From assembly GCA_964497535.1 (NCBI GenBank), contig CAZCCG010000002.1:169297-233296 (forward strand): a stretch of 64,000 bases of DNA. Direction: 5' to 3'. Below are positions 10,871-38,638 of this stretch, in pieces. Under the pieces are notes generated by a model. The model did not search any database and was not told the DNA's origin. It saw nothing but the letters and a program-made list of their open reading frames with translations. Origin of the DNA: an uncultured Gammaproteobacteria bacterium. Lineage in GTDB: Bacteria; Patescibacteriota; Microgenomatia; Levybacterales; UBA12049. The stretch's first letter is position 1, and each line of letters opens with the position of its first letter. The translations under genes and the position numbers were made by a program.

Positions 10871-10913
10871 ATGCTGATGCTCCTTTCCCCAAACATCTGT
10901 TCATCAATCTCGC

Positions 10914-11290: not shown

Positions 11291-11311
11291 ACAGTGAAAG
11301 AAACTGAGAAG

Positions 11312-19554: not shown

Positions 19555-20604
19555 TCAGTAGCCTCGTTTTATACGCCAAATGGTTTCAATGGTGTAATTC
19601 TTCCAATAGAGGGGAGATGTCGGTAAATCCTGAGCATGAATTAAATTTACTCGTCTTCCGCCAAATCCTGTTTTAAATAACGTTAAACCGTGCCATGGAT
19701 GCTTTGGTTTTTCAGGCGGAACTACCCCCCAAAAATTATAGATAGTTTTCCCCTGCCTTTTTGCTTCTTTGATTGCTTCCCATTGAATTAGGTATGCCCC
19801 GGGAATATCTTTATATTCATCGGCTGAAGCACCATGATGATAGACTGCCTGATTTCCATAGTAAATGACTAAAGCACCGGCAATAATGTTAGAATTATGC
19901 CGGGCTACAAATAACTTTGCCATTTTATTGTTGACGAAAATATCAAATTCTTCTCTCAAACCCCGATGAGGAATAAAATTATGACGCTTGGAAGTCCGCT
20001 CATACAGATCCATAAACTCTTCAAAATCTTTGGCTGTCCCGGCACTGCTTATCTCAACACCCAGGTTTTGTGCACGTCTTACCAGATACCTCGTTGTTTT
20101 TCGCATTCCTGCCATAATTTCTTGCTCATCCTGACTCAGATCCAATACCCAGGCATTTTCAGCATCCATATTGTGAACTGGTGCATTTCTAAATCCTCGT
20201 TTTACAAAAAAGGGCATATCTGCATGTTCTTCTTCAATAACAGGAGATATACGAATGAATTCAATCTTTTTATGCCGACATCGATTTTTAAGGTCTTCCA
20301 AAAGTACATCAAAACTGTTTTCAAAATGGGTTAACACTGGTCCGTGACGAAGATGGAAATAATGAGCACGTTTTGCTTTTATCTCAACGAGTTGGGCAAT
20401 ACCTACCAGTGTATTTTCATTAAAGATTCCAATACGATTAACCTCATGACCTACTCTTTTTTGAACCTCTCCCCATTTCCACGACTGAAAAAAAGGAGTA
20501 TAAGCGATGTTACTCCTCAACAAAAATTGTTCCCAAATGGTTTCATTTGATATATCGCGAACTTTTAGCATATGACTGTAATAATGATACAATTTTTTTG
20601 ACAT
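19555..20604 (-). CDS. FemAB-family peptidoglycan interpeptide-bridge aminoacyltransferase (FemX-like)
   Basis: FemAB-type N-terminus (FFQSWKWGEVQK), ~350 aa, acyltransferase fold pattern. Confidence 0.7.
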   Translation of the reverse strand: MSKKLYHYYSHMLKVRDISNETIWEQFLLRSNIAYTPFFQSWKWGEVQKRVGHEVNRIGIFNENTLVGIAQLVEIKAKRAHYFHLRHGPVLTHFENSFDVLLEDLKNRCRHKKIEFIRISPVIEEEHADMPFFVKRGFRNAPVHNMDAENAWVLDLSQDEQEIMAGMRKTTRYLVRRAQNLGVEISSAGTAKDFEEFMDLYERTSKRHNFIPHRGLREEFDIFVNNKMAKLFVARHNSNIIAGALVIYYGNQAVYHHGASADEYKDIPGAYLIQWEAIKEAKRQGKTIYNFWGVVPPEKPKHPWHGLTLFKTGFGGRRVNLIHAQDLPTSPLYWKNYTIETIWRIKRGY

Positions 20605-21793
20605 CCTGTGTGGACATTCGGGGATAAGTAGGAAGATTAACGATAGTTACAGCAAGATGCCTTGCTTGAGGTGTCAAAGCCGGATAAAAATGAATTTTTT
20701 CAAATTGTACCCCTTTGGGATCAATAATATTGGCATACCACGTACCCAAATATATATTATTTTTTTTGAAAAGCTCCAATAGATCCTCCCGATGATGACA
20801 CAGGATAGGAAATCTCAAGTAAGGTATCTCTTGAGTAGATGGTAATTCAAATGAAGAACCGGCAAGTTCCTTTTGGTATTGAGTGGAGATTTGAATTCTT
20901 TTTTTATTATATTCAGCAATTTTGCGTAATTGAGACAGAGCAAGGATACACAAAGCATTCGGCATTTTTCTCACAAATAGCTCACTTCGATTTGAGCGTT
21001 TTTCACCTATAGTTACCGGCATCGAGAGCAAATGCAGACGTTGTAATACTACCAGTATTACTTTGCCCAACGATAAAACCGTATAGAAGGGTAAAATAAT
21101 GCCAAAAGCAAGTGGATGCAGAAGCTGTTGAAAAATCCAAAAAAATCCCGGGTATTCTTGTTTTTTCTGAAATTGTCGAAGCGTATTCCCCAATGTTTTA
21201 TCATTTGTAATTGCCATTCCTCCAAATACACTGGAAAAAGCCTTATCTCTCCCAAAACTAAAAAAAGCTGCATCTCCAAACGTTCCTAATTTTTTACCAT
21301 CATATGTTCCCCCTACAGTATGCGCACAATCTTCAATAATAAGCAGGTTATGTTTCTTGGCAATTTTTTTGATCTGATCCATTTGGGAGGGAATTCCAAA
21401 GGTATGCTGTACCAAAATTGCTTTTGTCTTTGATGTAATGTTTTTTTCAATAGTATCGGGATTGATTGTCCCATCAAAAAGGACATCTACATATACCGGC
21501 TTTGCGCCTGCCCAAATGATCGCATTTGGCACGGCAACACAAGTAAATGCTTGCAACAACACTTCGTCTTTCTCTCCAATTTCCATTGCTTTTAATAAAC
21601 TATAAAAAGCAGACCGACCGCTATTAAATGATATTGCATATGACATGGAGAAATAGTTACGAAACCACTGTTCAAGTTTGCCTATAGAATCACCTGAAAA
21701 ATAATTCCAGGGACGGAGAATAGCTCCGAATGTTACTGCTATATCATCAGGTTGTGTGTTGGGGGATAAACCAGGAGCTATAGGAAATGCCAT
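20543..21793 (-). CDS. DegT/DnrJ/EryC1/StrS-family PLP-dependent sugar aminotransferase
   Basis: AFTCVAVPNAIIWAGAKPVYVDV and SFGRDKAFSS (PLP-lysine region) typical of the DegT family. Confidence 0.7.
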   Translation of the reverse strand: MAFPIAPGLSPNTQPDDIAVTFGAILRPWNYFSGDSIGKLEQWFRNYFSMSYAISFNSGRSAFYSLLKAMEIGEKDEVLLQAFTCVAVPNAIIWAGAKPVYVDVLFDGTINPDTIEKNITSKTKAILVQHTFGIPSQMDQIKKIAKKHNLLIIEDCAHTVGGTYDGKKLGTFGDAAFFSFGRDKAFSSVFGGMAITNDKTLGNTLRQFQKKQEYPGFFWIFQQLLHPLAFGIILPFYTVLSLGKVILVVLQRLHLLSMPVTIGEKRSNRSELFVRKMPNALCILALSQLRKIAEYNKKRIQISTQYQKELAGSSFELPSTQEIPYLRFPILCHHREDLLELFKKNNIYLGTWYANIIDPKGVQFEKIHFYPALTPQARHLAVTIVNLPTYPRMSTQDVKKIVSLLQSYAKSSRYIK

Positions 21794-21795
21794 AG

Positions 21796-23433
21796 TTATG
21801 CTTTCCTCACTTTCGTCACAATAACGCGGGGAATACCTTTTCCCATCATCACACTAATATCACCTTTTTTTGTATTGTTTACAACAAAATCAGTAATCTC
21901 CTCTATTGTTCCCGTTTTCACTTTACATTCCCCTTTTCCATCAGTAATTCCCTGAGTAATTTCTTTGTAAAAGTTTTTATTGACGAGAAAGAGATAATCG
22001 CATATAACAGAGATTGCTTTTGCAACTCTATAGTGTTCTTCTTTTCCTTTTTTCCCAAGTTCAATCATTGGTTCCAATATGAAAATTCTCTTGCCTTTAT
22101 ATTGCTTTATATACTCAAGCGTTGCAATCACACTATCAGGATTTGCATTAAATGTATTATCTAAAATATGGGATCCGTTTGAAAGTTCACTTCGAACCAT
22201 CGTATGAGGCAGCGGCGTTAGCTTGGATACGGCTGTTTTTATTTCCATATCGGACATTCCCAAATAGTCAGCTAGATAAATAGCGGGAAGAATATTTTCA
22301 ACCATATGGAGCCCAATCAATGATGTTTTTAAATGCAGTATTTTTTTTCTCAACTGCACATCAAAGTGAGTTCCATCCTCCTGGCCAGAGATATTATAGG
22401 CAACAATGTCCCCCAATTTCCCTACATTTGTTAATACTGTCTTTTTTGCCGATGATATAACTCTCCGATAGAGGACTTTTTTCTTTGTTGTATTTTTGTA
22501 TAGTTGAAAAACACGTTCGTTATTTCCGTTAAAAAGTGCCAAACCGTTTCTAGGAAGCGATTCAATTAATTCATATTTGGTTTTTTCTATATTTTCAATA
22601 CTTCCAAACAATGATAAATGTTGGCCTGCTATTGCTGTAAGTACACCGATTTTAGGACGGGCAATTGCACACAGCTCCGCGATTTCTCCTTTTTTATACG
22701 CTCCCATTTCTGCCACAAATATCTGAGTATTATTTTTTAATCCTTTCAAAATAGTATATGCTACCCCGATTGGAGTATTATCGGAATACTTTGTTTTTAA
22801 TACCTCGAATTTATGGGAGAGAACCTGGGCAATAAATTCCTTGGTAGAACTTTTTCCATAGCTGCCGGTAACTCCAATTACTAACAACTTTTCACTTTTT
22901 AAAATTTTTTTGGTTGCCCGCTCAATCTGGTAATCCTTGTAAAGCACCGTCGGCAAGGATACCGCAAAAACAACACATCCAACAACAAAAGGCAAAAGAA
23001 TATCCAAAATCATTAACCATACAAATGGATCTGTAGTAAGAGGAATGAGAAACAATGTAGTATAAATGTAAATTACTATCCCAATTAAAAGAAGCGCTTT
23101 TGTAGTAAATTTCGGACGCCGGAATGTATGAGTTAACAGTTCGTGGATAACCGCAACTCCTTCAATGAGTAATACAAGAGTAACAACTATTTGATAGAGT
23201 ACGAGAAAAAGTGGGTTATATACTGCAAATGCAAATCCTAATATCAGAATCCATTTGAAAATCGCATAAAATGAAAAAAGAATACTCTTACCACTGTGCG
23301 TTTCTGAAAGCTCTGCAAATAGCCGATCATACCGGTATTCCCGCCGTTGCCATAAAGACACCCAAAAAAAGGTGTTGCGTACTACCCATAAGAGAAAACT
23401 GACTGCGGCAATATAATATAAAACAGTAATCAT
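21796..23433 (-). CDS. murF: Mur ligase family protein (MurF-like D-Ala-D-Ala adding enzyme) with ~170-aa N-terminal polytopic membrane domain
   Basis: C-terminal two-thirds has the Mur ligase P-loop VIGVTGSYGKSSTKEF; the N-terminal ~170 aa contain 4–5 hydrophobic helices. Confidence 0.7.
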   Translation of the reverse strand: MITVLYYIAAVSFLLWVVRNTFFWVSLWQRREYRYDRLFAELSETHSGKSILFSFYAIFKWILILGFAFAVYNPLFLVLYQIVVTLVLLIEGVAVIHELLTHTFRRPKFTTKALLLIGIVIYIYTTLFLIPLTTDPFVWLMILDILLPFVVGCVVFAVSLPTVLYKDYQIERATKKILKSEKLLVIGVTGSYGKSSTKEFIAQVLSHKFEVLKTKYSDNTPIGVAYTILKGLKNNTQIFVAEMGAYKKGEIAELCAIARPKIGVLTAIAGQHLSLFGSIENIEKTKYELIESLPRNGLALFNGNNERVFQLYKNTTKKKVLYRRVISSAKKTVLTNVGKLGDIVAYNISGQEDGTHFDVQLRKKILHLKTSLIGLHMVENILPAIYLADYLGMSDMEIKTAVSKLTPLPHTMVRSELSNGSHILDNTFNANPDSVIATLEYIKQYKGKRIFILEPMIELGKKGKEEHYRVAKAISVICDYLFLVNKNFYKEITQGITDGKGECKVKTGTIEEITDFVVNNTKKGDISVMMGKGIPRVIVTKVRKA

Positions 23434-24149
23434 TGGATAAACTTTAAAACCTCCTCGGCAAATTTTTGAGGATACTCATATGGCAACTTATGTGTCGCCT
23501 CAGGTACCACTACATAAGTCGCACCCGGAATATACTCTGCAATCTCTTTTCCTATTATCAATGGTACAAATGTATCCTGTCCTCCCCATACTACCAATGT
23601 TTTTGTATGGATAGTTGGCAAAAGTGAAAGCAAGTCCTCATGAATGACTTTTTTGAATGTTTCTTTCAGACCTCCTGCTTTATAATAATCCCACTCTCCC
23701 AACAACTGATATGTCCCTTTTTTAAAGAGATCTGAAACTTCTTTTGGAAGGATATCCACAACTTGTTTGCCTGATTTTGCAATAGAGGAGATAACTTGTT
23801 TTTTCAATGATAATTTTTTTCTGATAAGCGGTGAACCGGTCAAAATCAGAGCTTGAACCAGCTGCGGATTTTGAGCGGACAATTTAGCAGCAATCCTTCC
23901 TCCAAATGAATGACCAATTAAAATTACTTTTTTCAACTGTTTCTTTATCATAAATTCTTTGACAAAATCAACATAGTCATCTAAATCCATACCTGGTTTG
24001 GTCAAAGGTTGCTTACCAAACCCGGGCAAATCTGGAGTAAAAACCGCAAACCCTTTTTTTTCAAGAATAGATTTGAGCTCGGAATAGCGATCCCCAGTCA
24101 TTGTTGTTGCCCATCCATGCAGGATGATAATTGGATATTTTTGTTTCAT
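23430..24149 (-). CDS. Alpha/beta-hydrolase fold protein
   Basis: Nucleophile elbow GHSFGG; ~240 aa. Confidence 0.75.
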   Translation of the reverse strand: MKQKYPIIILHGWATTMTGDRYSELKSILEKKGFAVFTPDLPGFGKQPLTKPGMDLDDYVDFVKEFMIKKQLKKVILIGHSFGGRIAAKLSAQNPQLVQALILTGSPLIRKKLSLKKQVISSIAKSGKQVVDILPKEVSDLFKKGTYQLLGEWDYYKAGGLKETFKKVIHEDLLSLLPTIHTKTLVVWGGQDTFVPLIIGKEIAEYIPGATYVVVPEATHKLPYEYPQKFAEEVLKFIQ

Positions 24150-24150
24150 A

Positions 24151-25911
24151 CTATTTAACTGTTACGCTTTTTGCAAGATTACGAGGTTTATCAGGATCAA
24201 ACCCTTTCTTCAATGCAAGATAATAACCCAAAAGTTGTGCAGGAATGATTTGAGGAATGATAGTTGCCTGTCCAACATCGTGTACTTCAATCCAATAATC
24301 AAAAATAGGAGAATTTTTTGAAGAAACTCCAATAATAATACCTCCCCGTGATTTAATTTCCATTGCATTTGATAACATTGCTTCATATGTTTGATCCTGT
24401 GGCGCAAAGACAATACAAGGAGTTCCCTCGGAGATCAAAGCGAGTGTCCCATGTTTGAGTTCTCCTCCTGCCAATCCTTCCGTATGAATATAGCTCACTT
24501 CTTTTATTTTAAGTGCCGCCTCCAAAGCGGTAGGAAGTGAAATTCCTCTCCCAATGGTATATAAATGTTCTTTTTTTGAAAGTAATTCAATAATGGGTTC
24601 AAGCTTTTCAATATTTTTTTTCTCCAAAAGCCGTTCTATCTCCTCAGCAGCTTTATCCAGAAGCGTTATAGATTCATTTACTTCTCCTTTTACCGCATAG
24701 GCAAGCATAAGAAGGATAGAAAGTTTGGCAATATATGCTTTTGTTGAAGCCACTGCTTTCTCAGGTCCTGCTCCAAGAAGCAATTTATAGTCTGCAAGTC
24801 TATATATTGTTGATCCTAAAACATTGGTGATAGCCACAATTTTACTTCCCTTTACTTTTGCGTGATTAAGTGGCTCTACAACATCGATTGTTTCACCGGA
24901 TTGAGATAAAGCAATTACCAAACTTTTTTTGTTGAGAAAATCTTCTAAATAATTAAATTCGGATGCGAAAGATGTATTTACATGCTTATGAGCTAATGTA
25001 GAAAACCAATACACCCCTGCCAAACAAGCATGGTATGCAGTTCCTGCAGCAATAAAAAATGTCCCTTTTGCCTCTGTTACAATTTTCCCCAAACTCTGGA
25101 CTTGTTGTCCATACTCATGCGCTATATTACGAATTACTTTTGGTTGTTCGTAAATTTCTTTTAGCATGAAATAATCATAAGTACCTTTATCTGCATCTTC
25201 TACTTTCCACGTAATTGTTTCAAAAGTTGGTTTAATTTTTGTGCCTTGAGGCATTTGCAGCAATTGTAAATCTTTACCGAGCACTACCATTTCATTATCT
25301 TTTAAAAATAACAGTTCTCTTGTATATTTAATAATTCCTGCTGCGTCTGATGCGATAAAATATTCATCATTTGTTTTTCCAACAATCAGCGGAGAGCCAT
25401 TTTTGACTGCAACAATTTCTTTCGAGGGGGCATATGCAACAACGATCGCATTCAATCCTTTTAGTTGGTTAAATGCATCACGAACAGATGAAGTAAATCC
25501 TTCTTTTTTTAGATTTTCTTCAATGAGATGACATACTATTTCAGTATCTGTTTCTGAAATAAATGTGTGACCTTTTTTTTGAAGTTGGGTTCTGAGTTCT
25601 GCGAAATTTTCAATAATTCCGTTGTGAACTACAGCTAAATCTTTGTTACAATCTAAGTGTGGATGTGCATTCTCTGTCGTAACCCCACCATGAGTTGCCC
25701 ATCGCGTATGACCAATACCAATTTCACTGTCTGCTAAGTTAACAGTAGCATTTCCAATTTTCCCGGTATGTTTATCAACAACAAGTTTTCCGCCATCCTT
25801 AACAGTTATTCCCCAAGAATCATATCCTCTGTATTCCAGAAGTTTTAATCCCTCAAGTACAATGGCTGCCGCATTTTTTCTCGTACCGATGTATCCAAAT
25901 ATTCCACACAT
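24151..25911 (-). CDS. glmS: Glutamine--fructose-6-phosphate aminotransferase (GlcN-6-P synthase)
   Basis: MCGIFGYIG Ntn-amidotransferase start, two SIS domains, 586 aa. Confidence 0.95.
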   Translation of the reverse strand: MCGIFGYIGTRKNAAAIVLEGLKLLEYRGYDSWGITVKDGGKLVVDKHTGKIGNATVNLADSEIGIGHTRWATHGGVTTENAHPHLDCNKDLAVVHNGIIENFAELRTQLQKKGHTFISETDTEIVCHLIEENLKKEGFTSSVRDAFNQLKGLNAIVVAYAPSKEIVAVKNGSPLIVGKTNDEYFIASDAAGIIKYTRELLFLKDNEMVVLGKDLQLLQMPQGTKIKPTFETITWKVEDADKGTYDYFMLKEIYEQPKVIRNIAHEYGQQVQSLGKIVTEAKGTFFIAAGTAYHACLAGVYWFSTLAHKHVNTSFASEFNYLEDFLNKKSLVIALSQSGETIDVVEPLNHAKVKGSKIVAITNVLGSTIYRLADYKLLLGAGPEKAVASTKAYIAKLSILLMLAYAVKGEVNESITLLDKAAEEIERLLEKKNIEKLEPIIELLSKKEHLYTIGRGISLPTALEAALKIKEVSYIHTEGLAGGELKHGTLALISEGTPCIVFAPQDQTYEAMLSNAMEIKSRGGIIIGVSSKNSPIFDYWIEVHDVGQATIIPQIIPAQLLGYYLALKKGFDPDKPRNLAKSVTVK

Positions 25912-25913
25912 AG

Positions 25914-26363
25914 TTAGGTATTTCCTCCTAAATAGATACGATAATCATTTGTATCTCTTTTTTCAAAACCAAGTGATTCATATAATCTATTTGCGGCAAC
26001 TCGAGTAGGATTAGACGTGAGATCAATATGATGTATTCCCTCTTTTTTTGCCATCTCAAGAAGTTTTTTGACCAAAAGAGTCCCTACTCCTTTTGATCTG
26101 TGGTTATCATCAACAAAAACATCCTGAATCCATCCTCTTTTGCCACTTAAAGCAGGTGACATAATAAGCGTTATGGTACCTATTATCTCCTCCCCCTCCA
26201 GAGCTACAAAAAGTTTTACCGAAGGGGCTACCAACAAACCTTTGAGATAATTTTCTGTCAATTGAAGCAACTGCGGATTTAACTCTTTTATAAATCTGTT
26301 GAGAGTTTCTAAAAGATATGGTGAATAGGTATCTATTTGTTGAACATTGATATTTTTTTCCAT
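25914..26363 (-). CDS. GNAT-family N-acetyltransferase (possible GNA1-like glucosamine-phosphate N-acetyltransferase)
   Basis: GNAT motif A region RSKGVGTLLVKKLLEMAKKEG; function inferred from genomic context. Confidence 0.7.
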   Translation of the reverse strand: MEKNINVQQIDTYSPYLLETLNRFIKELNPQLLQLTENYLKGLLVAPSVKLFVALEGEEIIGTITLIMSPALSGKRGWIQDVFVDDNHRSKGVGTLLVKKLLEMAKKEGIHHIDLTSNPTRVAANRLYESLGFEKRDTNDYRIYLGGNT

Positions 26364-26364
26364 A

Positions 26365-27138
26365 TTATGCTGTCTCTGAAGAAGCAGTTGAGATATGATT
26401 TAGGCTGGTAAATAATTTCTCAGCTTCTTCCAGTTCTTCTTTTGTATTTACACCCTGCCATGAAAGCTTTCCACCCTGTACTGTTGCAATTTTTTGATTA
26501 TGTTTCATTGCCGTATCAATCAAACTGGTAAGATAATATTCTCCGGTAACGGGACTTTTTTCAACTTTCGCAAGATATTTACTGAGAAAAGTTCTACTAA
26601 ACACATAGCAAGCCGGATTAATTTCATGGATTTGTCTTTGTTCCAATGTGGCATCTTTTTCTTCAACAATTGCTGTTACTTTTCCACCAAGATCGCGTAC
26701 TACCCGTCCCAGACCTGTTGGGTCATCTTTTTCAATCGTTAGAAATGTAACCGCAGCAGATGAATTAAAATGAGTATCTATTAATTTATTTAAAATTTCT
26801 TTGCTATAAAAAGCAGAGTCATCTCCTCCTAAAACAAGTACATCTGTAATTGATGGCGGTAATTTCTTCAATCCGCAAAATACAGCATGAGCTGTTCCCA
26901 ACCGTTTTCTCTGTTCTGCAAAAAGCACCGATGTCCCTGATAATGCTTTCATTACTGATTCTTTTGCAAACCCGACAACAACAACAATGTTTTGCAGCTG
27001 TAAACTTTCCAGAAGCAAAATCGAGTGCAGGATCATCGGTTTGTCCGCAAGGGAAACGGCAACTTTATTGATATCCTTGGCTTTCATACGTTTTCCTTTA
27101 CCTGCAGCCATAATAATAGCTCCAATATGTTCTCTCAT
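26365..27138 (-). CDS. Sugar-1-phosphate nucleotidyltransferase (GlmU N-terminal uridyltransferase-like; no LbH acetyltransferase domain)
   Basis: GAIIMAAGKGKRMK signature of GlmU/RmlA-type nucleotidyltransferases; only 257 aa. Confidence 0.75.
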   Translation of the reverse strand: MREHIGAIIMAAGKGKRMKAKDINKVAVSLADKPMILHSILLLESLQLQNIVVVVGFAKESVMKALSGTSVLFAEQRKRLGTAHAVFCGLKKLPPSITDVLVLGGDDSAFYSKEILNKLIDTHFNSSAAVTFLTIEKDDPTGLGRVVRDLGGKVTAIVEEKDATLEQRQIHEINPACYVFSRTFLSKYLAKVEKSPVTGEYYLTSLIDTAMKHNQKIATVQGGKLSWQGVNTKEELEEAEKLFTSLNHISTASSETA

Positions 27139-28469
27139 AATTCATCCTCTTTCTCACGAACAATGTCAGCCCCAAGATTAGTCAGACGCTGCTCAAATCG
27201 TTCATATCCTCGGTCGAGCTTTTCAACTCCAAAAATAGTACTTGTTCCACGAGCGGCCAATGCAGCCAATACCACTGCTGCACCTGCACGAATATCAAGC
27301 GTTGTAAGAATTGCATTGTGTAGTTGAGTAGGACCGGTTATACGAACCGCGTGGAAATACTCCGGACTGTCATCTTCCAGATTGAAATTGTATAGGTGCT
27401 CCCGGTTACCAACCTCAGGGTTATATAACTCCATCTGTGCACCCATTTTTTTCAAATCTTTTACATATCCCATTTTATTCTCAAATACTGTTTCATGTAC
27501 TGTTGAAACTCCATCAGCTTGAGTCATAAGTACTGCCCATGGAGCTTGCCAATCCGTCATAAATCCCGGATAAATAGCAGTAGCTACATCAGTCGCCTTC
27601 AAGGTATTTCTAAAGAAAAATCGTATTCCTTCTCCTTTGGACTCATATTCTCCTCCCACACTTTGAAGTTTTTGTAAAAAGGCTTCCAGGTTGACATTTT
27701 TTACATTCTCAACAAAAATATCTCCTTTGGTAACCAGCGCCGCAATTGCAAATGTCACAATTTCGTTTCTATCCGGACTAATGGTAAATTCTGCACCATG
27801 AAGTTTTTGTACCCCTTTGACTGTTATTTGTCGTTTTGCAGTACGTTTTATATCTGCTCCCATCAAATTAAGCAGGGTCATTAAATCATCAATTTCCGGC
27901 TCTTGGGCTGCATTCTCAAGCACTGTAGTACCTTCTGCGCAAACGGAAGCCAGAATCAAAGTCTCGGTACCGGTATGAGTATTTTTTTCAAATGTATAGT
28001 CAATCCCCTTGAGTCCCGTGGTTTTAGCATGAAAATAACCATCATCACTCATATAGGTTATATCGGTATTCATTTTGGCTATGCCTTCTATAGTCCGATC
28101 AATTGGACGAGCACCTAACCGGCATCCACCTGGATTTGGAATAATTGCCTCATGGGTACGAACCAACAGCGGAGCAATAAACATGGCAGAAGTTCTGGCA
28201 AGTGCTGCTTTTTCCAGAGAAATCGAGGAGGTTTTGAATTGTTGCATTCTAATTTTAGCTGTATGTCCCGTCACGACAACCTGAGCTCCTAACTCTTTCA
28301 TGATATCTACCATCACAAAAAAATCAGAGATATGAGGAACATTATGGATAATAACTTCTTCATCAGTAAGGCATGCGGCAACAAGCACCTTCAAGGCTAC
28401 ATTTTTTGCTCCTGATACAGCAACTGTACCACTGAGTCTTTTACCACCTGTTACGACAAACTTTTCCAT
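27135..28469 (-). CDS. murA: UDP-N-acetylglucosamine 1-carboxyvinyltransferase
   Basis: MEKFVVTGGKRLSGTVAVSGAKNVALKVLVAACL is the canonical MurA N-terminus; 444 aa. Confidence 0.95.
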   Translation of the reverse strand: MEKFVVTGGKRLSGTVAVSGAKNVALKVLVAACLTDEEVIIHNVPHISDFFVMVDIMKELGAQVVVTGHTAKIRMQQFKTSSISLEKAALARTSAMFIAPLLVRTHEAIIPNPGGCRLGARPIDRTIEGIAKMNTDITYMSDDGYFHAKTTGLKGIDYTFEKNTHTGTETLILASVCAEGTTVLENAAQEPEIDDLMTLLNLMGADIKRTAKRQITVKGVQKLHGAEFTISPDRNEIVTFAIAALVTKGDIFVENVKNVNLEAFLQKLQSVGGEYESKGEGIRFFFRNTLKATDVATAIYPGFMTDWQAPWAVLMTQADGVSTVHETVFENKMGYVKDLKKMGAQMELYNPEVGNREHLYNFNLEDDSPEYFHAVRITGPTQLHNAILTTLDIRAGAAVVLAALAARGTSTIFGVEKLDRGYERFEQRLTNLGADIVREKEDEL

Positions 28470-28553
28470 AGCATTTCTTAATTATAGTATTGGGGCAGTC
28501 TTATTGTAATAATTTCAGGCAGGTGAAACAAGAGGAAGAAACCACAACTGTAG

Positions 28554-29543
28554 TTACATTCCTACTCCATACACATTCATCATCAAATGAACTCCGCATT
28601 TTTTTAACACTTCATTTTTTGCCAATTGAACAAGGGCAACAACATCCGTTGCGCTAGCATTCCCTAAATTTACAATAAAATTCATATAGAGACCTGAAAT
28701 AATAGCATCTCCCACTTTTATATCTTTTACGCCCGATTTTCCCATCAGATGACCCGCAGAGACAATTTTATCAGGAACTTGAATCTGAGTTGACTCTTCA
28801 ACTGAGGTATTGCGAAAGGTACATCCTGATGTTTCTTTTGGTTGTGATGCACTTCGGTGCTGCAGAGCCTGAGTTCCTCGTTCCCATAGCAATTTTTTAT
28901 CCATGGGACTAAATTTAAAAATAACAGATAATACAATTTCTTTTGTTTGCTGCAAGATACTCTTGTCATACCCAAAGTTAAAATAGGATGAGTCTACTTC
29001 TTTTACTTCTCCCTCATGGGTAAGCAGACGTACCCGATATACACAATCACCTACAAATGCGCTTGCTTTCTCCCAATTGGAATTCATACAAATCCCACCT
29101 CCGACAGTCCCGGGAAGACCCAATTGATATTCAATACCGGAAAGTCCTTGTTCTATAGTAAAACGTACCAGTTGATTCATAATTGTTCCTCCTTCGGCAT
29201 ATACGTACGCATTATTGACATCCATTTTCCATCCTTCAGCTTTATTCTGCATTTTACCAGTCATACTCATGACGTCAAATTTTCGGCAGTTATTTTTGAT
29301 TACTAACCCCTTGAAACCGCTATCTGAAACAACCACGTTGGAACCTCCCCCCAGGATAAAAACTTCAATATCGTTTTCATAACATGTTTTTACCAGCTGA
29401 ATAATTTCATCAATTTTTTCGGTATCAATATAAAACTGGGCGGGACCACCAATTTTAAGTGTGGTATGCAACTTCATGGGTTCATCCAATCTCAACCTGT
29501 TCTGTCCCACAATTTGTTCTAATGCTTTTCTTTTCTTATCCAT
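28554..29543 (-). CDS. murB: UDP-N-acetylenolpyruvoylglucosamine reductase
   Basis: FAD-binding N-terminus KLHTTLKIGGPAQFY, MurB C-terminal domain; 329 aa. Confidence 0.9.
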   Translation of the reverse strand: MDKKRKALEQIVGQNRLRLDEPMKLHTTLKIGGPAQFYIDTEKIDEIIQLVKTCYENDIEVFILGGGSNVVVSDSGFKGLVIKNNCRKFDVMSMTGKMQNKAEGWKMDVNNAYVYAEGGTIMNQLVRFTIEQGLSGIEYQLGLPGTVGGGICMNSNWEKASAFVGDCVYRVRLLTHEGEVKEVDSSYFNFGYDKSILQQTKEIVLSVIFKFSPMDKKLLWERGTQALQHRSASQPKETSGCTFRNTSVEESTQIQVPDKIVSAGHLMGKSGVKDIKVGDAIISGLYMNFIVNLGNASATDVVALVQLAKNEVLKKCGVHLMMNVYGVGM

Positions 29544-29545: not shown

Positions 29546-30973
29546 TTATTTTACGCTTTGCATTTTTAGTTTCTCGCTTATTTTGTATACATCTCCTGCT
29601 CCCATCGTCAGAATGATTGTATCCTTGGGATAGGCTTTTTTGTTGATATATTCTACCACAGATGAACTTGTGGGTAAAAAGGTGACATTCTTATGTACTG
29701 AGGCCATATCCTGGGCTAACTTTTGAGAAGTTATTGTAGAATCAAGCTCCTCCCTCATTGACGCATAAATAGGAAGCAAAATAACAGTGTCGGCTTTATC
29801 AAAGGCTTTTAAAAAATCCGGATATAATTCTTTTGTTCGTGAATAGGTATGGGGTTGAAAAATGCAGACGATTTTGTGTTTGGGATAACTGTTGGCAAAG
29901 GCAATAAGCGTTTTTTTGATTTCCGTAGGATGGTGGGCATAATCATCAAAAAGTTGAGCTCCACCGACCAATTCACCCCTATATTCCGCTCGCCGCTTGC
30001 TCCCAACAAAATTTGGCAATGCTTTTTTAATAGTATCGATAGAAATCCCGGATTCAAAAGCTGTAATGATAGCTGCCAATGCATTCAGTGCATTATGCTC
30101 ACCCAATACGCGGACAAAAAACTCACCCAAGGAAGTTCCATATGCATCTACCCAAAAACTTGTCCGATTTGCAGAAAGCGATATATGTTTTATGACATAA
30201 TCATTGGAAGGAGAAAATCCATAGGTAATAGACTTCCCATTGTACTGTTTTAAAAGTATTTGTACTTGAGGATCATCACCGCAGGCAATTACTAGACCAT
30301 CAGTAGGAAGATTTTGGAGAAATTCCAAGAACGCATGACGCAAATCATCAACCGTATGATAAAAATCAGTATGATCCAATTCAATATTAGTAACAACCGC
30401 GATTTTGGGATGTTGCCATAAAAATTTTGTTGTCTGATCATGTATCGGATCTGTCGCATATTCATCAGCTTCGGCAATAAAATACATTCCCTTTCCTTTA
30501 TGACCGGGTTTACCCAACGATGGAACAGAAGCGGTTCCAATAACATATGATGGTTGACGTTTGGCCTGCTCAAATAAGGTTGCAACCATAGCAGTTGTCG
30601 TTGTCTTTCCATGCGTTCCTGCCACAGAGATACCGATATATTTTTTATGAAAGATATCTCCTTTCATAAATTCTCCTACCGCTTGCCCTTGTAACCATAC
30701 CGGAATGCCTTTTTCTTTCGCTGCAATTACTTCTACATTGTCATAACCACCATGTGCTCCCGTAGTAATAACAAGCTGTGCCCCATCAATATGGGATGGA
30801 TCAAAACCCACCAATGGGATAATACCGGCTTCTTGTAAGATACTGTCTGTAATAAAAGTTTCGACAATATCCGACCCTGTCACCACAAATCCGGCTTCTT
30901 TTGCAATAATTGCCAAAGGAGTCATGCCAACCCCCTTAATTCCAACAAAATGGATATGTTTAATTCTTTTCAT
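29546..30973 (-). CDS. murC: UDP-N-acetylmuramate--L-alanine ligase
   Basis: IHFVGIKGVGMTPLAII (MurC N-domain), GTHGKTTTT P-loop; 475 aa. Confidence 0.92.
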   Translation of the reverse strand: MKRIKHIHFVGIKGVGMTPLAIIAKEAGFVVTGSDIVETFITDSILQEAGIIPLVGFDPSHIDGAQLVITTGAHGGYDNVEVIAAKEKGIPVWLQGQAVGEFMKGDIFHKKYIGISVAGTHGKTTTTAMVATLFEQAKRQPSYVIGTASVPSLGKPGHKGKGMYFIAEADEYATDPIHDQTTKFLWQHPKIAVVTNIELDHTDFYHTVDDLRHAFLEFLQNLPTDGLVIACGDDPQVQILLKQYNGKSITYGFSPSNDYVIKHISLSANRTSFWVDAYGTSLGEFFVRVLGEHNALNALAAIITAFESGISIDTIKKALPNFVGSKRRAEYRGELVGGAQLFDDYAHHPTEIKKTLIAFANSYPKHKIVCIFQPHTYSRTKELYPDFLKAFDKADTVILLPIYASMREELDSTITSQKLAQDMASVHKNVTFLPTSSSVVEYINKKAYPKDTIILTMGAGDVYKISEKLKMQSVK

Positions 30974-31698
30974 ACCATGCCGATTATTCCTGCAAATACT
31001 TTATGGTTCTTTTTAACATGTTGTTTGCGATAGGAGTAGAATATATCAGCATTATCACGAGTACATATCTCTAAATCTTCAATGTTTTCTCTCTGAATGC
31101 CCATTGATACTAATTGATGATAGATAATCGTTTGTAAACTGAGGAAATTCTGATCATTTTTTTTAAGCAGAAAATCATTTCCATACTCATGGAATTTTTT
31201 TTGAAATAATTGTGCCACATCATGGGAAACAATATAACAACATATTCGTATTGAAGGCCCAATACCAACCAAAATATCCTTGGGATCAGATCCATGTTTG
31301 ATCAAATCCAGTAGAAGATGCCGCACAACCTCATGATATGTCCCCCTCCATCCGCTATGGACAATTCCAATCATCTTTAAATGAGTATCATAAAACAAAA
31401 CCGGCACACAATCGGCAAATGTACCATACAAAAATGTTTGTGGTACATTGGACCATAAGCTATCTACCCCATCAATAATTTTTCCTTTATCAATGTTCTT
31501 AGCTTGATAAACACTATTCCCATGAATTTGTTCCATTCCAATGCTATCTTCTGTTGAAATTCCCACCAGTTCAGCCAAGGATCGAATGGAACTAACTCCT
31601 TTTCCACCAGAGGCCATATTGCCAAGAAGAATAGTCGAGAACCCATGCACTAAGCCGGGAATATTTGATAATTTTTTTACTGTATATATTGAATCCAT
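30970..31698 (-). CDS. pgeF: Peptidoglycan editing factor PgeF / YfiH (DUF152, laccase-domain) family protein
   Basis: HGNSVY, ADCVPVLFYD, HSGWRG motifs of the YfiH/PgeF family. Confidence 0.8.
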   Translation of the reverse strand: MDSIYTVKKLSNIPGLVHGFSTILLGNMASGGKGVSSIRSLAELVGISTEDSIGMEQIHGNSVYQAKNIDKGKIIDGVDSLWSNVPQTFLYGTFADCVPVLFYDTHLKMIGIVHSGWRGTYHEVVRHLLLDLIKHGSDPKDILVGIGPSIRICCYIVSHDVAQLFQKKFHEYGNDFLLKKNDQNFLSLQTIIYHQLVSMGIQRENIEDLEICTRDNADIFYSYRKQHVKKNHKVFAGIIGMV

Positions 31699-31707: not shown

Positions 31708-32919
31708 TTACTGAGAAATGTTACTCAGTGCTTCTTGTACTGCCTGGTGTTCGCTATAGGGAAGTTCTTTTCCATTATAATTCATTGACTTTTCATGCCC
31801 TTTTCCAAGGAGCAAAACAATGTCTCCTTTTTTTGCTAATTTGGTAATGATAAAGTTAATTGCTTCTGTTCTGTTTGGAATTTTAAATAATGTTTTATTC
31901 TTAATTCTTGATTCATAATTCTTAATTCCTGATTGAATCTCATTGATAATCTTCATCGGGTCCTCCCGTCTTGGATCCTCATCTGTCAAAACAATAGTGT
32001 CGGCAATCCTACCAGCAATTTCTCCCATCATAGGACGTTTCAATACATCTCTTTCTGAAGCACTTCCTAACATTACAATGATTTTTCCATCTTTTTTTAT
32101 TTGCGCTTTTGCTGCTTCTAAAATTCCTTGCACAGCATCGGGCTTATGGGCAAAATCAATAATAACTCGGAAATCTTTTCCGGTAGGGACTTCCTCAAAC
32201 CGCCCGGCAAGGTTAGTAACATTTTCAAGCGCATGTTTTATTGTTTTTTCCGGCACACCCAGAATCGTACCGACGGCGGCGGCTGCTAATGCATCCAATA
32301 AATTAAAATCTCCGGGTAGCTTTATATGGAGATTTAGTTTTTTTTGCGTAATATCACCCTCATTTAAGCCAAAGGTAATTGCCTTTTTCTGTACATCGTC
32401 AAACCCTACCGCTTCTTTCAGTTCATCCTTGATTCCCTTGAAGGGAAGGACTACTTTTTTTGCGTTATGAAGGAGAATAAATTTTGCTTTTGCGTAATTT
32501 TCAAACGTTTTATGGTAATCCAAATGTTCATGGGCAAGAGTTGTTAATACACCGATTGAAAAAGGAATAAATGCCGCCCTATTTTGATGCAATGCGTGAG
32601 ATGACACTTCCAGAACAAAATATCTATCACCCTGATCCACTGCTTGACGTAAATATTTGGGAAGTGTCTGAGGATCAGGAGTTGTTACATGAAATCCGGT
32701 ATCATAATCGATACCCCCGACAACTGCTTTGATAGACGAAAGAAGAGAAACCTTATATCCTGCAGCTTTTAGGAGTTCATATACCATATGGGTTGTAGTG
32801 GTTTTACCGCTCGTACCGGTAATTCCAATCACAGTAAGCTGTTTTCCGGGAAAACGATAGTAAAGATGAGCGAGAAAAGCAGTCGCAAGATGATATAAAT
32901 TTTTAAAGTCTTGCCACAT
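31708..32919 (-). CDS. murE: Mur ligase family protein, MurE-like (short, lacks canonical N-terminal domain); could alternatively be murD
   Basis: P-loop GITGTSGKTTTTHMV, C-terminal GKGHE motif as in MurE/MurF; contains a 21-nt in-frame tandem duplication at 31898–31939. Confidence 0.65.
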   Translation of the reverse strand: MWQDFKNLYHLATAFLAHLYYRFPGKQLTVIGITGTSGKTTTTHMVYELLKAAGYKVSLLSSIKAVVGGIDYDTGFHVTTPDPQTLPKYLRQAVDQGDRYFVLEVSSHALHQNRAAFIPFSIGVLTTLAHEHLDYHKTFENYAKAKFILLHNAKKVVLPFKGIKDELKEAVGFDDVQKKAITFGLNEGDITQKKLNLHIKLPGDFNLLDALAAAAVGTILGVPEKTIKHALENVTNLAGRFEEVPTGKDFRVIIDFAHKPDAVQGILEAAKAQIKKDGKIIVMLGSASERDVLKRPMMGEIAGRIADTIVLTDEDPRREDPMKIINEIQSGIKNYESRIKNKTLFKIPNRTEAINFIITKLAKKGDIVLLLGKGHEKSMNYNGKELPYSEHQAVQEALSNISQ

Positions 32920-33028
32920 AATGGTAATGTATCAAATTGTATTTTTTATATTATAGCTGAAATACCGACACCGTGCAGACTTGGAAAACCCTTCGTAATA
33001 CCAAAAAATCACCGTCGGAAAATAAAGC

Positions 33029-33060
33029 GGGCAAGGAACAGCCTACACTATTCCTTGCCC
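33029..33060 (-). terminator. Hairpin (10-bp stem GGGCAAGGAA/TTCCTTGCCC, 12-nt loop) downstream of island gene, weak U-run
   Basis: Read directly; lies 31 nt downstream of the minus-strand stop at 33092. Confidence 0.4.
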
Positions 33061-33091
33061 AGTGAGAAGATTGAAACCACTCAGTGGCTGA

Positions 33092-33781
33092 TCACCCCTT
33101 GACAGAATCTTTGTTGGAAGACAACAAACCTACTCTAGTCATCTCGGTATGGAACCGCATCCATCCATCATCAGTGTTAAGCCTGAGCTCTTCATACAAC
33201 TCTCTTAGCCCACCAGATATAGTTTCACGATCCAGGCTTCCTTCTCGTAGCGCTATCAACCGGTCGACACCGGTCAGAAGCTGTTGTTTGAAAATAGGGT
33301 GCGTTTCACTTCCAAGAGTTGCTTTCTTCTCAAGTATCTTGAGTAGAAAACGCTTCACCGAAGGTGAAACTCCCAATTGTCCTCCCCGTATTCGTGGCTT
33401 TCTCGGGTTAGTTCTAGTTCCCCTTTTGCGAACGTCAACGGGCTGGGGACGTGGACTGGAAATGGCCTGTTCTTGAAACGCCCGCCGGGCAGCCTGGTGT
33501 TCCTCAGGCAAAAGCTGATCGTCAAGAGCATGCAAAACCCCTGATGCCTGAATTGTTACAACTGATAATCGTACTTCTACAGAAGTGATTACTGACAAAG
33601 CCAGATATAGGGTTTCCCTTATCTCAGTATCACTAAATATCCTTTCTTTGTATCGTCTCAGCTGCATTAGTGTAGGATTTAGATTGTTGGCTACCTGAGT
33701 AAGGTGGTCAGCGTGCTCAAGCAGATCTTTTTGGAAAGCTTCAAGTTGTCTCATTGCCTCATCCACCAACGTTACAGACAT
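33092..33781 (-). CDS. Hypothetical protein (229 aa), GC-rich island
   Basis: High-GC ORF, Arg/Pro-rich central linker; no homology recognised. Confidence 0.5.
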   Translation of the reverse strand: MSVTLVDEAMRQLEAFQKDLLEHADHLTQVANNLNPTLMQLRRYKERIFSDTEIRETLYLALSVITSVEVRLSVVTIQASGVLHALDDQLLPEEHQAARRAFQEQAISSPRPQPVDVRKRGTRTNPRKPRIRGGQLGVSPSVKRFLLKILEKKATLGSETHPIFKQQLLTGVDRLIALREGSLDRETISGGLRELYEELRLNTDDGWMRFHTEMTRVGLLSSNKDSVKG

Positions 33782-34030
33782 GAGTACCTCCTTCTGTCAT
33801 ACCCTCCACGTTTTATCAGAAAGTGTGTTGGTTTTCTCCTCTCACTTGTAAATGTACCCTAAACCACAAAGCCAAAACACAAGGTTTTGGCAGCAGTTAT
33901 ATGTGAAAATCTCTCACTGGTATCAATCCGTATTGATGCCAGAATCAAGATTGTGAGAGAGGGTCTTGATAGATATCTTCCTCAAACGTCAAGCCGCATA
34001 TATGGCTTGTGTGTGGAAAGTATCTTGGGT

Positions 34031-34063
34031 GGGTTGGGGCCGAGTCTAACTCGGCCCCAACCC
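34031..34063 (-). terminator. Very stable GC hairpin (14-bp perfect stem GGGTTGGGGCCGAG/CTCGGCCCCAACCC, loop TCTAA) without U-tract
   Basis: Read directly; 16 nt downstream of the minus-strand stop at 34079; resembles U-tract-less terminators of high-GC bacteria. Confidence 0.5.
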
Positions 34064-34078
34064 GGATATGTAATGCAG

Positions 34079-34825
34079 TCAGGACGCTTTGTTCCTGCCG
34101 CTGGGCAAAACGACACCCCACTGCCTGAGCAGTTTGATGAAGTTGCCCTCGCCCATGCTGCGCACTACTTCCCGCAGAGAAGCAGCATCCCGGCTAACCG
34201 GTGCATCTGAGGTCAAGCAGACTAAGGCACTGCGTAAATCCCGGCAGATGACGCTCGCCTGCTTATCAGCGATATCGTCACCAACCACGATATCCACCAG
34301 ACCGTACTGACCTTTAACAGCCAACCGCACGATATGGGTACGCCACCCCTGACCGTACATCAGCTCCATTACCGCCTCCATGCTCTTGGGAAGCGGTTTG
34401 TTACCCCGATGCATCAGGATCTTTCGAAGGATGGAGCGAGCCAACAGCGGAATCCCCTTCGTCCGTTGCGGGATAGCAGGAGTTACTGCTGGCGCGGCCA
34501 CCGGTGGGGCAGGGGGAGCCGGCGGAGAGACAGGCGGTGTCACGGAACGACCTCCGCTCTGCCTGGCTCGGGAAACTGCATGATGAGGCGCAGACGCGGT
34601 CCCCAGATCATACTGGATCTCCGATAGTGCCCGCTGCGCTTCACTGATTGCTGCAGAAAGTTGACGTGCACTACGGCGACCCTTCTGAGGTCGCTCAACA
34701 AGTGCGAGAACCTTCTGTGCCGCCACATGGTAGCGTTGACTCTCTGCCTGAAGCTGAGCCGCGATACTACGCAGCGGCCTGAAAGTCTTCTCCTCAAACA
34801 ACGATACATCTGGCTTGGCCATCAC
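34079..34825 (-). CDS. Hypothetical protein with Pro/Ala-rich linker (PPAPPAPPVAAPAVTP) and C-terminal ~110-aa domain, GC-rich island
   Basis: High-GC ORF; no homology recognised. Confidence 0.5.
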   Translation of the reverse strand: MMAKPDVSLFEEKTFRPLRSIAAQLQAESQRYHVAAQKVLALVERPQKGRRSARQLSAAISEAQRALSEIQYDLGTASAPHHAVSRARQSGGRSVTPPVSPPAPPAPPVAAPAVTPAIPQRTKGIPLLARSILRKILMHRGNKPLPKSMEAVMELMYGQGWRTHIVRLAVKGQYGLVDIVVGDDIADKQASVICRDLRSALVCLTSDAPVSRDAASLREVVRSMGEGNFIKLLRQWGVVLPSGRNKAS

Positions 34826-34916
34826 TTCTTCCTTCCACTATTCGTAGGAGACATGGCGCGATGCCATATCTCATGGAGGTTTGGTAACACTCCCCATCCA
34901 CATCAGAGGATCCTTT

Positions 34917-36872: not shown

Positions 36873-38638
36873 TAAAACCCTACCTCCTTCATGACTCTGA
36901 TGCGGTCTTCTCGAACCACTCCCTGTTTTACCAGGATTTCCAGAAGCTGGATAACGCCGTTCATAGCGCTTCCATGCTCCCTTCGGAGTTGATCTCGTGT
37001 AGCAGGATCATCAGCCTCCATATACTCTCGCAAGAGTGCTTCAAGACTGCTTAACGTTACCGCAACATCGCTTCCCTCTGTATGAGCCTTCCTCCTTCTG
37101 AGGCGCTCCTCAAATGCTCTTCCTTCGAGCATCTGTTGCAGACTTGTTACCGCGTTGTGTATCTGACCCAAACGCTCTGCCTGCTCGTGCAGTAACTGCT
37201 CGCGCATCTGTGCAAGATCTTGTTGGATTTGGGCTCGAATGGCTTCGTTATCTGCTGCTCGTTTTCCTCCCATAGCTAAAACTACCACCTCTGTTAAGGT
37301 TCTTGATATCTCAGCACCAATTTGCTGAGATAGTGCATGGACGAGGTTATCGATATAACCTCCTACCAAACCCCCTACAGAAGAGGATAACGATGGTACA
37401 GATGGTTCTAGTACAACCGCCTCTTCCTCCGATGGTGGCGGGAGTCGGTCTTCAGACGGTTCTTCCTCTTCGCCACTCTCGTCTCCAAGAGACGCGGGTG
37501 CAGAATCTACGTCCTCCCCATCCTCCGGGTTCTCCGACTTTTTCTCTAGCCACTCCTGATATTCTTGCTCCGACCAGGCTCGCTTCACTTCGCGAAAACC
37601 TTTTCCGTGTGCCACCCAGATAGGGGGCAACGTACAGGGATCCGCAAGTGGTAACCGGCTCAGCCGGTGGATGTTGGCGTAGTGCTCTGTGTTGAGTACA
37701 TCTTCGCCGTGGATGATCTTGTGCCATGTCCCCAACGGTATACCAGCTTCGTGTGCAAAAACCGTCAGTGACGTACCACGATTGGCAGGAATCCACTCCC
37801 GCAAATCGTGCATCAGGTCCTGGGCAAATGTCGGTGGAGGCGGTTGCTCTTGTAAAGCCAGCCACTCCTCCAATCGTTGTTCTGTCCACGCCCGATGAAT
37901 CAGGATGTGTTTCCTGTTATCCCGAGGACCAACTTGTGAAGGTCGGCCAGGGATAATCGTCGGCCGGGATTGTGGCAACCTCGTGAGGCGGTATATACGA
38001 GCATAGTACTCGTAGTCCTCCGCTTCAACGATAGACTCGCCGTAAACAACCCGCTTGAGCACATTCCAGGGTACTTCCAGCTCAGCAGACAACCTCTTGT
38101 TATCGTATCCGTGCTCACCCATCCAGGCGAGAATCGCCGTGGAAAGAGCTGCACGGAACTGCTGCGGAGTCAGCTCTTCCGATGAAGAACCACTCCTTGC
38201 AGCTGCAACTGCGGACGCTTGGTCCATGTCCACCTCCTCTTCAGTTCCTCCCTGTTGTGTGCTTCCTAAAACAGGACCTGCAGACGCAGCTTCCTGCTTA
38301 CGATTCTTCTCTAGCCACTCCTGATATTCTTGCTCCGACCAGGCACGGACTTTCCCCGACAGTATTCCACCTCTTCGCACATGTGAATATGCAATCGGTA
38401 GCCTACTCGGGTCAGCCTCTTGTATACCAAAGTCGTGATGAAGCCTGGCATAGACATCTGTTGCATCCAGGATTGCCCCTGCGGTAAGCAGCAGCTTTCC
38501 TTCGGCTTCAGATACCCCAAGCTCCTCGAAGAAATCTGGCTCAGATCGATGCTCTTTCTCAAGCATCTCCAGTACAGCAAAGGCAACCTTTTCTGCCCAC
38601 TGCTGTTCCTCGGTGGTAAACGCCAAGTTGACGTTCAA
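36872..38638 (-). CDS. Hypothetical protein with three tandem ~120-aa repeats (each ending R-A-W-[ST]-E-Q-x-x-x-E-W-L) and C-terminal coiled coil; translationally coupled to the GHKL ATPase gene
   Basis: Protein-level repeats RAWSEQEYQEWLEK (x2) and RAWTEQRLEEWLALQ; 37-nt perfect DNA repeat at 37543–37579 and 38308–38344 (765 nt apart, in frame); its stop overlaps the downstream start at 36872. Confidence 0.55.
   Translation of the reverse strand: MNVNLAFTTEEQQWAEKVAFAVLEMLEKEHRSEPDFFEELGVSEAEGKLLLTAGAILDATDVYARLHHDFGIQEADPSRLPIAYSHVRRGGILSGKVRAWSEQEYQEWLEKNRKQEAASAGPVLGSTQQGGTEEEVDMDQASAVAAARSGSSSEELTPQQFRAALSTAILAWMGEHGYDNKRLSAELEVPWNVLKRVVYGESIVEAEDYEYYARIYRLTRLPQSRPTIIPGRPSQVGPRDNRKHILIHRAWTEQRLEEWLALQEQPPPPTFAQDLMHDLREWIPANRGTSLTVFAHEAGIPLGTWHKIIHGEDVLNTEHYANIHRLSRLPLADPCTLPPIWVAHGKGFREVKRAWSEQEYQEWLEKKSENPEDGEDVDSAPASLGDESGEEEEPSEDRLPPPSEEEAVVLEPSVPSLSSSVGGLVGGYIDNLVHALSQQIGAEISRTLTEVVVLAMGGKRAADNEAIRAQIQQDLAQMREQLLHEQAERLGQIHNAVTSLQQMLEGRAFEERLRRRKAHTEGSDVAVTLSSLEALLREYMEADDPATRDQLRREHGSAMNGVIQLLEILVKQGVVREDRIRVMKEVGF

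Follow-up and report, generated by a model that had tools for sequence, protein, structure and literature searches.

Which enzyme supplies the acetyl group of uridine diphosphate N-acetylglucosamine (UDP-GlcNAc) where the GlmU protein is too short to carry its acetyltransferase half is the question raised by a locus in the 64-kb stretch of contig CAZCCG010000002.1 analyzed here (the window). Textbooks present GlmU as a bifunctional enzyme of bacteria, universal and essential, whose acetyltransferase domain serves as a target for antibiotics. The locus, in a Levybacteria-like bacterium of the candidate phyla radiation (CPR), has a GlmU of 257 amino acids (aa), followed by an acetyltransferase of the GNAT fold and by glmS. 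Four genes are of concern:

27135..28469, minus strand: murA, UDP-GlcNAc enolpyruvyl transferase, 444 aa (EPSP_synthase, E-value = 1.7e-77)
26365..27138, minus strand: stand-alone GlmU N-terminal domain (glmU-N), 257 aa (Pfam NTP_transferase, NCBIfam GlmU models)
25914..26363, minus strand: GNAT acetyltransferase, 149 aa (Acetyltransf_1, E-value = 1.8e-20)
24151..25911, minus strand: glmS, glutamine-fructose-6-phosphate aminotransferase, 586 aa (TIGR01135)

An earlier reading of this DNA (the original prediction) gave the coordinates and lengths of glmS, the GNAT and the nucleotidyltransferase exactly, and the open reading frames confirm its placement of the GNAT between glmU-N and glmS. From sequence comparisons we consider it reasonably probable that murA, glmU-N, the GNAT gene and glmS form a module for de novo UDP-GlcNAc synthesis, in which the GNAT replaces, in situ, the Left-Handed beta-Helix (LbH) acetyltransferase of ordinary GlmU.

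The short GlmU and the GNAT protein

NTP_transferase is the sole Pfam domain of the 257 aa protein, and the Pfam search shows no Hexapep (LbH) domain. NCBIfam GlmU models match it over model positions ~3–237 of ~452 only, e.g. TIGR01173 with 206 bits against a full-length cut-off of 366.85, and alignments with PDB GlmU chains are confined to residues ~5–245, which is the N-domain (E-value = 1e-36). The proposed absence of the LbH half of GlmU is thus borne out. The protein shares 36% identity with E. coli GlmU across 242 residues. Equivalents of E. coli R18, K25, Q76, G81, T82, D105, E154, N169, E195, and N227 are all kept and Y103 is replaced; the numbering of the E. coli sequence compared reproduces R18 and K25. 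The GlmU pyrophosphorylase signature LxxGxGTxM...PK is present and reads MAAGKGKRM...NK. Matches restricted to the N-domain, together with the kept GlmU residues, point to a predicted bacterial-type GlcNAc-1-P (N-acetylglucosamine-1-phosphate) uridylyltransferase domain that ends at the helical linker. A eukaryotic UAP1-type enzyme, to whose route the original prediction likened the module, does not agree with the NCBIfam and PDB matches, which are to the bacterial GlmU N-domain.

More than 3000 homologs of glmU-N were found. The best 120 of these are all 244–266 aa long and come mostly from Levybacteria, and several are misnamed "bifunctional GlmU" by their sources. The catalytic motifs are invariant in the family alignment. 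A short GlmU is the norm of the whole lineage and no special trait of this locus. GlmS gives 642.6 bits with TIGR01135 (cut-off 418), consists of a GATase and two SIS domains and has the N-terminus MCGI. A full-length GlmU elsewhere, named beforehand as evidence that would speak against a replacement, is not found within the 64-kb window, which also displays no second GlmU of any length, no GlmU-type LbH protein and no GlmM motif.

The GNAT protein displays Pfam GNAT domains only and is generic in sequence. It has the GNAT fold with a catalytic Tyr by which canonical GNA1 is recognized, and its AF2 model has a pLDDT of 90. Its scores reach the cut-off of no named NCBIfam family (RimI, 39.6 bits vs 86.4; AAC(3)-I, 40.2 vs 200; PRK03624, 42.9 vs 124). 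Assignment to RimI or AAC was rejected on these scores, which are far under the curated cut-offs. The family carries the signature (D/H)LTSxPxRxxANxLYxxLGFEKR(D/E)TNxYR, its motifs are invariant and it is under purifying selection.

A profile built from 18 mur-linked GNATs was run against PDB chains. The uncharacterized GNAT 1z4e comes first and C. parvum GNA1 second, with a full-length match at an E-value of 4.7e-13; the latter is the best functionally characterized PDB match of the family. Canonical GNA1 chains give E-values of 4e-4 with the single-sequence query and 6e-8 to 1e-5 with the profile, and rank behind more than 20 other GNATs. These comparisons do not place the window GNAT among the orthologues of canonical GNA1.

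Residues of C. parvum GNA1 found important by mutagenesis are Arg73, His81, Arg113, Thr117, Tyr127, and Arg141 (PMC7587441). Thr117 corresponds to T116 and Tyr127 to Y128 of the window GNAT, both of which are invariant in the family, and Arg141 to R142, which is well conserved; the basic residues K75/R76 lie near the position of Arg73. In contrast, His81 and Arg113 of the apicomplexan enzyme (PDB 6YUG; PMC7587441, PMC5838249) are replaced by D81 and H112 and are not conserved, and the family has invariant residues of its own, S117, R121, T138, and N139. The comparison does not show orthology to apicomplexan GNA1.

The wider GNAT subfamily has 761 representatives at an E-value of 1e-30 or better. 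Longer members have an additional HPPK or metallo-beta-lactamase domain or an extension that is unexplained; these fusions are rare, are uninformative on amino sugars and were set aside as a clue to function. One member adjoins a cytidylyltransferase-like gene. Bacteroidota (Fermentimonas-like) members are situated at the end of a cluster (L003, 4064–8438; L086, 1–6432; L088, 1–6435; numbers with L denote loci collected here), which has the order MFS/BT1 transporter, NamZ, a 390 aa protein of unknown function, BcrAD_BadFG-like kinase, SIS (MurQ-like) protein, a 113 aa unknown, esterase and GNAT. This cluster looks like a locus for recycling of N-acetylmuramic acid (MurNAc)/peptidoglycan, and its NamZ/kinase-like/MurQ-like context is a second, independent link of the subfamily to amino sugars. 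A search of the literature on NamZ/MurQ-linked acetyltransferases gave nothing relevant.

The acetyltransferase slot in related loci

A scan of one genome per species with GlmU-N gave 80 loci, to which L001 and L002 were added by way of a GNAT search. Open reading frames were called in all loci and classified by BLAST, clustering, local hidden Markov models (HMMs) and Pfam/NCBIfam. The 80 loci are labelled Levybacteria/Levyibacteriota or Patescibacteria, and many bear an evidently wrong bulk label, "Gammaproteobacteria". Records of metagenome-assembled genomes titled "uncultured Gammaproteobacteria/Pseudomonadales bacterium" (L006, L009–L011, L015, L021, and others) carry Levybacteria-type mur clusters, and these labels look wrong.

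In Levybacteria-type loci murA is always immediately upstream of glmU-N. The slot next to glmU-N is of three classes. A GNAT of the window's family occupies it in 15 of the 80, and likewise in L001 and L002; in these 17 loci it stays beside glmU-N at 29–48% GNAT identity in clusters that are otherwise rearranged. An LbH protein is found in 21 of the 80, either as a stand-alone protein of 208–221 aa or as an NTP-transferase+LbH protein of 413–421 aa; in three distant loci it is immediately upstream of glmU-N and not downstream. The remaining loci have neither, and in the Levybacteria-type ones mraY comes directly next. Apart from L013 and L016 (see below), no gene family other than the GNAT and the LbH protein takes this slot. 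No locus of the 80 has both a GNAT and an LbH protein (hypergeometric P = 0.006), and no member of the GNAT family is found elsewhere within ±10 kb of any locus.

The slot LbH proteins match TIGR03992 over positions 236–391 (E-value = 4e-46) as well as the S. tokodaii ST0452 C-domain (E-value = 1e-21), and in the long forms the match spans the whole of TIGR03992 with 288 bits. As judged by these matches they are GlmU-type acetyltransferases of the archaeal kind. The term "archaeal-style", which the original prediction gave to the window's module, fits this LbH cassette of the relatives (TIGR03992/ST0452-like) and not the window.

The clearest pair of loci is L028, with a GNAT, and L029, with an LbH protein. 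MurA, GlmU-N, a HAD-like protein and GlmS of the two are 67–70% identical and are encoded in the same order, the acetyltransferase being the sole difference, and L028 and L029 are nearer to each other than to loci with their own cassette type. GNAT and LbH cassette types also interleave in a neighbor-joining tree of GlmU-N, which is poorly resolved. The slot is situated between the enzyme that is without its acetyltransferase half, glmU-N, and the enzyme that produces the amine substrate, glmS. Two unrelated folds of acetyl-CoA-dependent acetyltransferase alternate in this one slot, and the alternation is the classic signature of non-orthologous displacement. Comparative genomics in this way supports displacement of the acetylation step, and the GNAT probably performs the step missing from the short GlmU. 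The suggestion of a non-orthologous replacement of the GlmU acetyltransferase half draws its main support from this alternation, with the mutual exclusivity of GNAT and LbH in the slot of relatives.

The presence of glmS within the cluster tracks that of an acetyltransferase cassette. Among long loci, both are found in 17, glmS alone in none and neither in 33 (Fisher 1e-7). L034 and L039 are exceptions to this rule when divergent GlmS copies or short loci are included.

Two further genes appear near the slot. An open reading frame of ~160 aa, which is HAD-like, weakly similar to YjjG/CTE7 and intact in its DxDxT, S, K, and DD motifs, follows the acetyltransferase in 12 of 17 GNAT loci and 10 of 18 downstream-LbH loci. 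In all it is present at L028 (11177–11659), L029 (7709–8197), L002 (8441–8941) and 20 other loci, among them L013, where it is present without an acetyltransferase; it is absent from the window. The HAD-like protein is a candidate for a step of the module to which no gene is assigned, as a mutase, pyrophosphatase or phosphatase. L013 and L016, which have no acetyltransferase in the slot, show a HAD-like and/or CofD gene there instead. In L016 a gene for a CofD/YvcK-family protein (10746–11732; Pfam CofD, E-value = 6e-95) is the direct downstream neighbor of glmU-N, and in L013 (9348–10394) it comes after the HAD-like gene. YvcK of B. subtilis, also called GlmR, is a UDP-GlcNAc-binding regulator of GlmS, and for this reason a CofD/YvcK gene beside glmU-N may represent a regulatory link.

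Operon layout and other genes of the window

The module is part of a mur module inside a long minus-strand division/cell-wall (dcw) cluster. The upstream part of the cluster contains, in order, MraZ, MraW, a penicillin-binding protein (PBP), a ~6-kb high-GC island and a MurE-like ligase. From the ligase to murA the genes are:

31708-32919, minus strand: MurE-like ligase
30970-31698, minus strand: YfiH-like protein
29546-30973, minus strand: MurC
28554-29543, minus strand: MurB
28481..28510, minus strand: promoter-like site ATTACA-18-TATAAT in the murB-murA spacer (consensus match only)

Downstream of glmS follow, in order, an a/b-hydrolase, a long MurF, DegT, FemAB, MraY, FtsW, MurG, FtsA, and FtsZ.

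The murA stop and the glmU-N start overlap by 4 nt (ATGA). The spacers are 1 nt from glmU-N to the GNAT gene and 2 nt from the GNAT gene to glmS, and the GGAGG Shine-Dalgarno sequence of glmS is within the 3′ end of the GNAT gene. No terminator-like sites were found between murA, glmU-N, the GNAT gene and glmS. The promoter-like site at 28481..28510 is a possible start of a murA-glmU-N-GNAT-glmS-... transcript, on the basis of its consensus match; promoter-like sites around the module are not enriched over shuffles. A search of the module region shows no glmS ribozyme or other Rfam family. The same gene arrangement was recovered in independent assemblies from two sequencing runs, and since these agree, the layout from murA to glmS is not an assembly artefact.

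The block after glmS (19555–24149) consists of the a/b-hydrolase, the long MurF, a DegT-family aminotransferase and a FemAB-family transferase, and is kept in at least a dozen related loci. The MurF has 545 aa, with ~185 residues N-terminal to the ligase domain. This block suggests a non-standard peptidoglycan precursor. The island at 33000–38800 (~6 kb) has a GC content of 0.53–0.56 vs ~0.37 elsewhere and splits the dcw cluster between the PBP (38863–40542) and the MurE-like ligase. It carries four long minus-strand open reading frames of 229, 248, 651, and 588 aa, which show no Pfam or PADLOC match except a weak one to HATPase_c_3. In the relative L001, which is 76–81% identical, PBP and MurE-like ligase are just 82 bp apart. 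The island was probably inserted from a foreign source; a chimera of the assembly is another possibility.

A glycosyltransferase-rich polysaccharide cluster extends over 47281–63250 and includes Bac_transf, a ManC-like NTP-transferase, several GT4 and GT2 proteins, PMT_2, and a WcaF-family LbH protein. A 1009 aa (54907–57936) and a 657 aa (61277–63250) open reading frame in this cluster have no Pfam match. The WcaF-family protein (58799–59392), an exopolysaccharide O-acetyltransferase, is the sole other LbH protein in the window. It was considered as a GlmU substitute and rejected, as it is found in the glycosyltransferase cluster and gives 29 bits with the Levybacteria LbH HMM, where true members give more than 140. 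The ManC-like NTP-transferase (47950–49032) was rejected as an acetyltransferase since its beta-helix is of the ManC type. At the other end of the window a SAM-I/IV riboswitch (4956–5061, plus strand; 44.2 bits vs a gathering score of 41.1) directly precedes metK (5027–6184), whose annotated TTG start it overlaps.

Proposed pathway and its alternatives

The GNAT substrate, the order of the reactions and the mutase are what we infer from the comparisons above. In the proposed pathway murA, glmU-N, the GNAT gene and glmS would be co-transcribed as a UDP-GlcNAc supply module within the peptidoglycan cluster. GlmS would produce glucosamine-6-phosphate (GlcN-6-P), and the GNAT, with acetyl-CoA as donor, would acetylate a glucosamine phosphate at its amino group. 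The phosphate would be shifted from C6 to C1 by a phosphohexosamine mutase with its gene outside the window, and GlmU-N would uridylylate GlcNAc-1-P, giving UDP-GlcNAc for MurA and MurG. The GNAT would be a non-orthologous substitute, in situ, for the acetyltransferase of left-handed beta-helix fold fused in ordinary GlmU.

A comparison with known systems shows where this module stands. E. coli-type bifunctional GlmU (TIGR01173) has a homologous N-terminal uridylyltransferase domain with the same catalytic and GlcNAc-binding residues, and its product likewise feeds MurA, but the window protein ends at the helical linker and is without the LbH domain and its trimerizing beta-helix. The eukaryotic hexosamine pathway (GFAT, GNA1, AGM1, UAP1) also has a separate acetyltransferase of the GNAT fold and starts with GlmS/GFAT, and its order, in which GlcN-6-P is acetylated first, may apply to the window module too. 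It differs in that the window uridylyltransferase is GlmU-type (PF00483) and not UAP1-type, and the GNAT is no GNA1 orthologue; no AGM1 was seen in the window. The archaeal-type bifunctional sugar-1-phosphate nucleotidylyltransferase/acetyltransferase (TIGR03992; S. tokodaii ST0452, PDB 2GGO/5Z09) fills the slot, whole or as its LbH half, in sister Levybacteria, but is absent from the window and has the LbH and not the GNAT fold. Because of the GlmU-type uridylyltransferase and the lack of GNA1 orthology the module is not "eukaryotic", and because the archaeal-type element is the relatives' alternative cassette it is not "archaeal". The most apt description is that of a bacterial GlmU that was split and whose acetyltransferase step a GNAT took over. 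Of the likeness to a GNA1 + UAP1 route, as originally drawn, the separate GNAT acetyltransferase holds and the eukaryote-like reaction order may hold; the parallel fails for the uridylyltransferase and for the origin of the GNAT.

The order of acetylation and phosphate transfer may be that of GNA1 (GlcN-6-P to GlcNAc-6-P, then mutase), or GlmM may turn GlcN-6-P into GlcN-1-P, which the GNAT would acetylate as the LbH domain of GlmU does. Both are variants of the proposed module. To our knowledge the GNATs characterized in this pathway all use GlcN-6-P, and no GNAT-fold GlcN-1-P acetyltransferase is known; the closest characterized structure is that of a GlcN-6-P enzyme, the equivalents of whose Arg141 and Thr117 are conserved. 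The GlcN-6-P order is slightly preferred for this reason. The opposite order is favored by the exchange, in one and the same slot, between the GNAT and an LbH protein with homology to domains that acetylate GlcN-1-P; the substrate would then be unchanged and no change of mutase would be required. Taken as an explanation of the locus as a whole, the GlcN-1-P variant is a distinct but minority possibility. Levybacteria, and the genome of the window in particular, might use a native bacterial GNA1-like route, in which a dedicated GNAT subfamily acetylates GlcN-6-P and has repeatedly been exchanged, in situ, for a GlcN-1-P acetyltransferase of the archaeal LbH type; this we put forward tentatively.

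Several observations weigh against the proposed module. Neither the window nor any of 85 loci contains the mutase motif [ST][AGP]SH[NL]P of GlmM/AGM1. In about 35 Levybacteria loci glmU-N has no adjacent acetyltransferase, so that the lineage can encode it elsewhere or forgo it. Members of the wider GNAT subfamily differ in gene context and in fusion partner (HPPK, metallo-beta-lactamase), and the subfamily is therefore not obviously dedicated to amino sugars. These last two points also favor the main rival, to which we give roughly one chance in four: the GNAT would act outside UDP-GlcNAc synthesis, the GlcN-1-P acetyltransferase being an LbH protein elsewhere in the genome. Its target might then be another cell-wall intermediate, a stem-peptide amino acid, a salvaged de-N-acetylated sugar or a xenobiotic. 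Weak similarity to AAC(3)-I, RimI, and Naa30 is in line with such a role, and the unusual DegT, FemAB, and a/b-hydrolase genes of the cluster could need an acetyltransferase. However, the scores for named families are all far under their cut-offs, and GNAT loci without DegT/FemAB exist (L015, L056, L057). A GNAT unrelated to the pathway also accords poorly with its strict alternation with GlmU-type LbH proteins in one slot with conserved flanks, and with its co-occurrence with glmS.

It is improbable that de novo acetylation does not take place at all, with GlcNAc salvaged from a host, GlmU-N being sufficient, and the GNAT and glmS decaying or otherwise used. CPR bacteria are reduced symbionts, and in ~33 related loci both glmS and an acetyltransferase are missing from the surroundings of glmU-N. 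But glmS, the GNAT gene and glmU-N are intact, full-length and translationally coupled here, the GNAT family is under purifying selection, and the GlcN-6-P made by an intact GlmS would have no use in the wall without acetylation.

Acetylation of the GNA1 type is regarded as eukaryotic, and hence yeast or worm GNA1 has been imported into bacteria for GlcNAc production. The searchable literature on GlmU of CPR/Patescibacteria and on bacterial GNAT GlcN-6-P acetyltransferases gave no description of a split GlmU with a GNAT. The comparative evidence for a displacement is strong, and the function proposed for the GNAT is drawn from it. Eukaryotes and Apicomplexa each recruited a GNAT as GNA1, independently of one another (PMC5838249), a parallel to the takeover proposed here. 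If the proposed displacement is true, this would be a third independent recruitment of a GNAT to the acetylation step, after canonical and apicomplexan GNA1. A split GlmU with an interchangeable archaeal-type LbH protein or GNAT would then give a clean example from nature of how a gene of a core cell-wall pathway is displaced by a non-orthologous one, and automatic labels of "bifunctional GlmU" on 250 aa proteins would be corrected. If the GNA1-like route is true, the ~160 aa HAD-like gene might provide the missing phosphomutase or pyrophosphatase step, and among peptidoglycan-making bacteria the GlmU acetyltransferase domain would not be universal, nor would the "bacterial" order of reactions.

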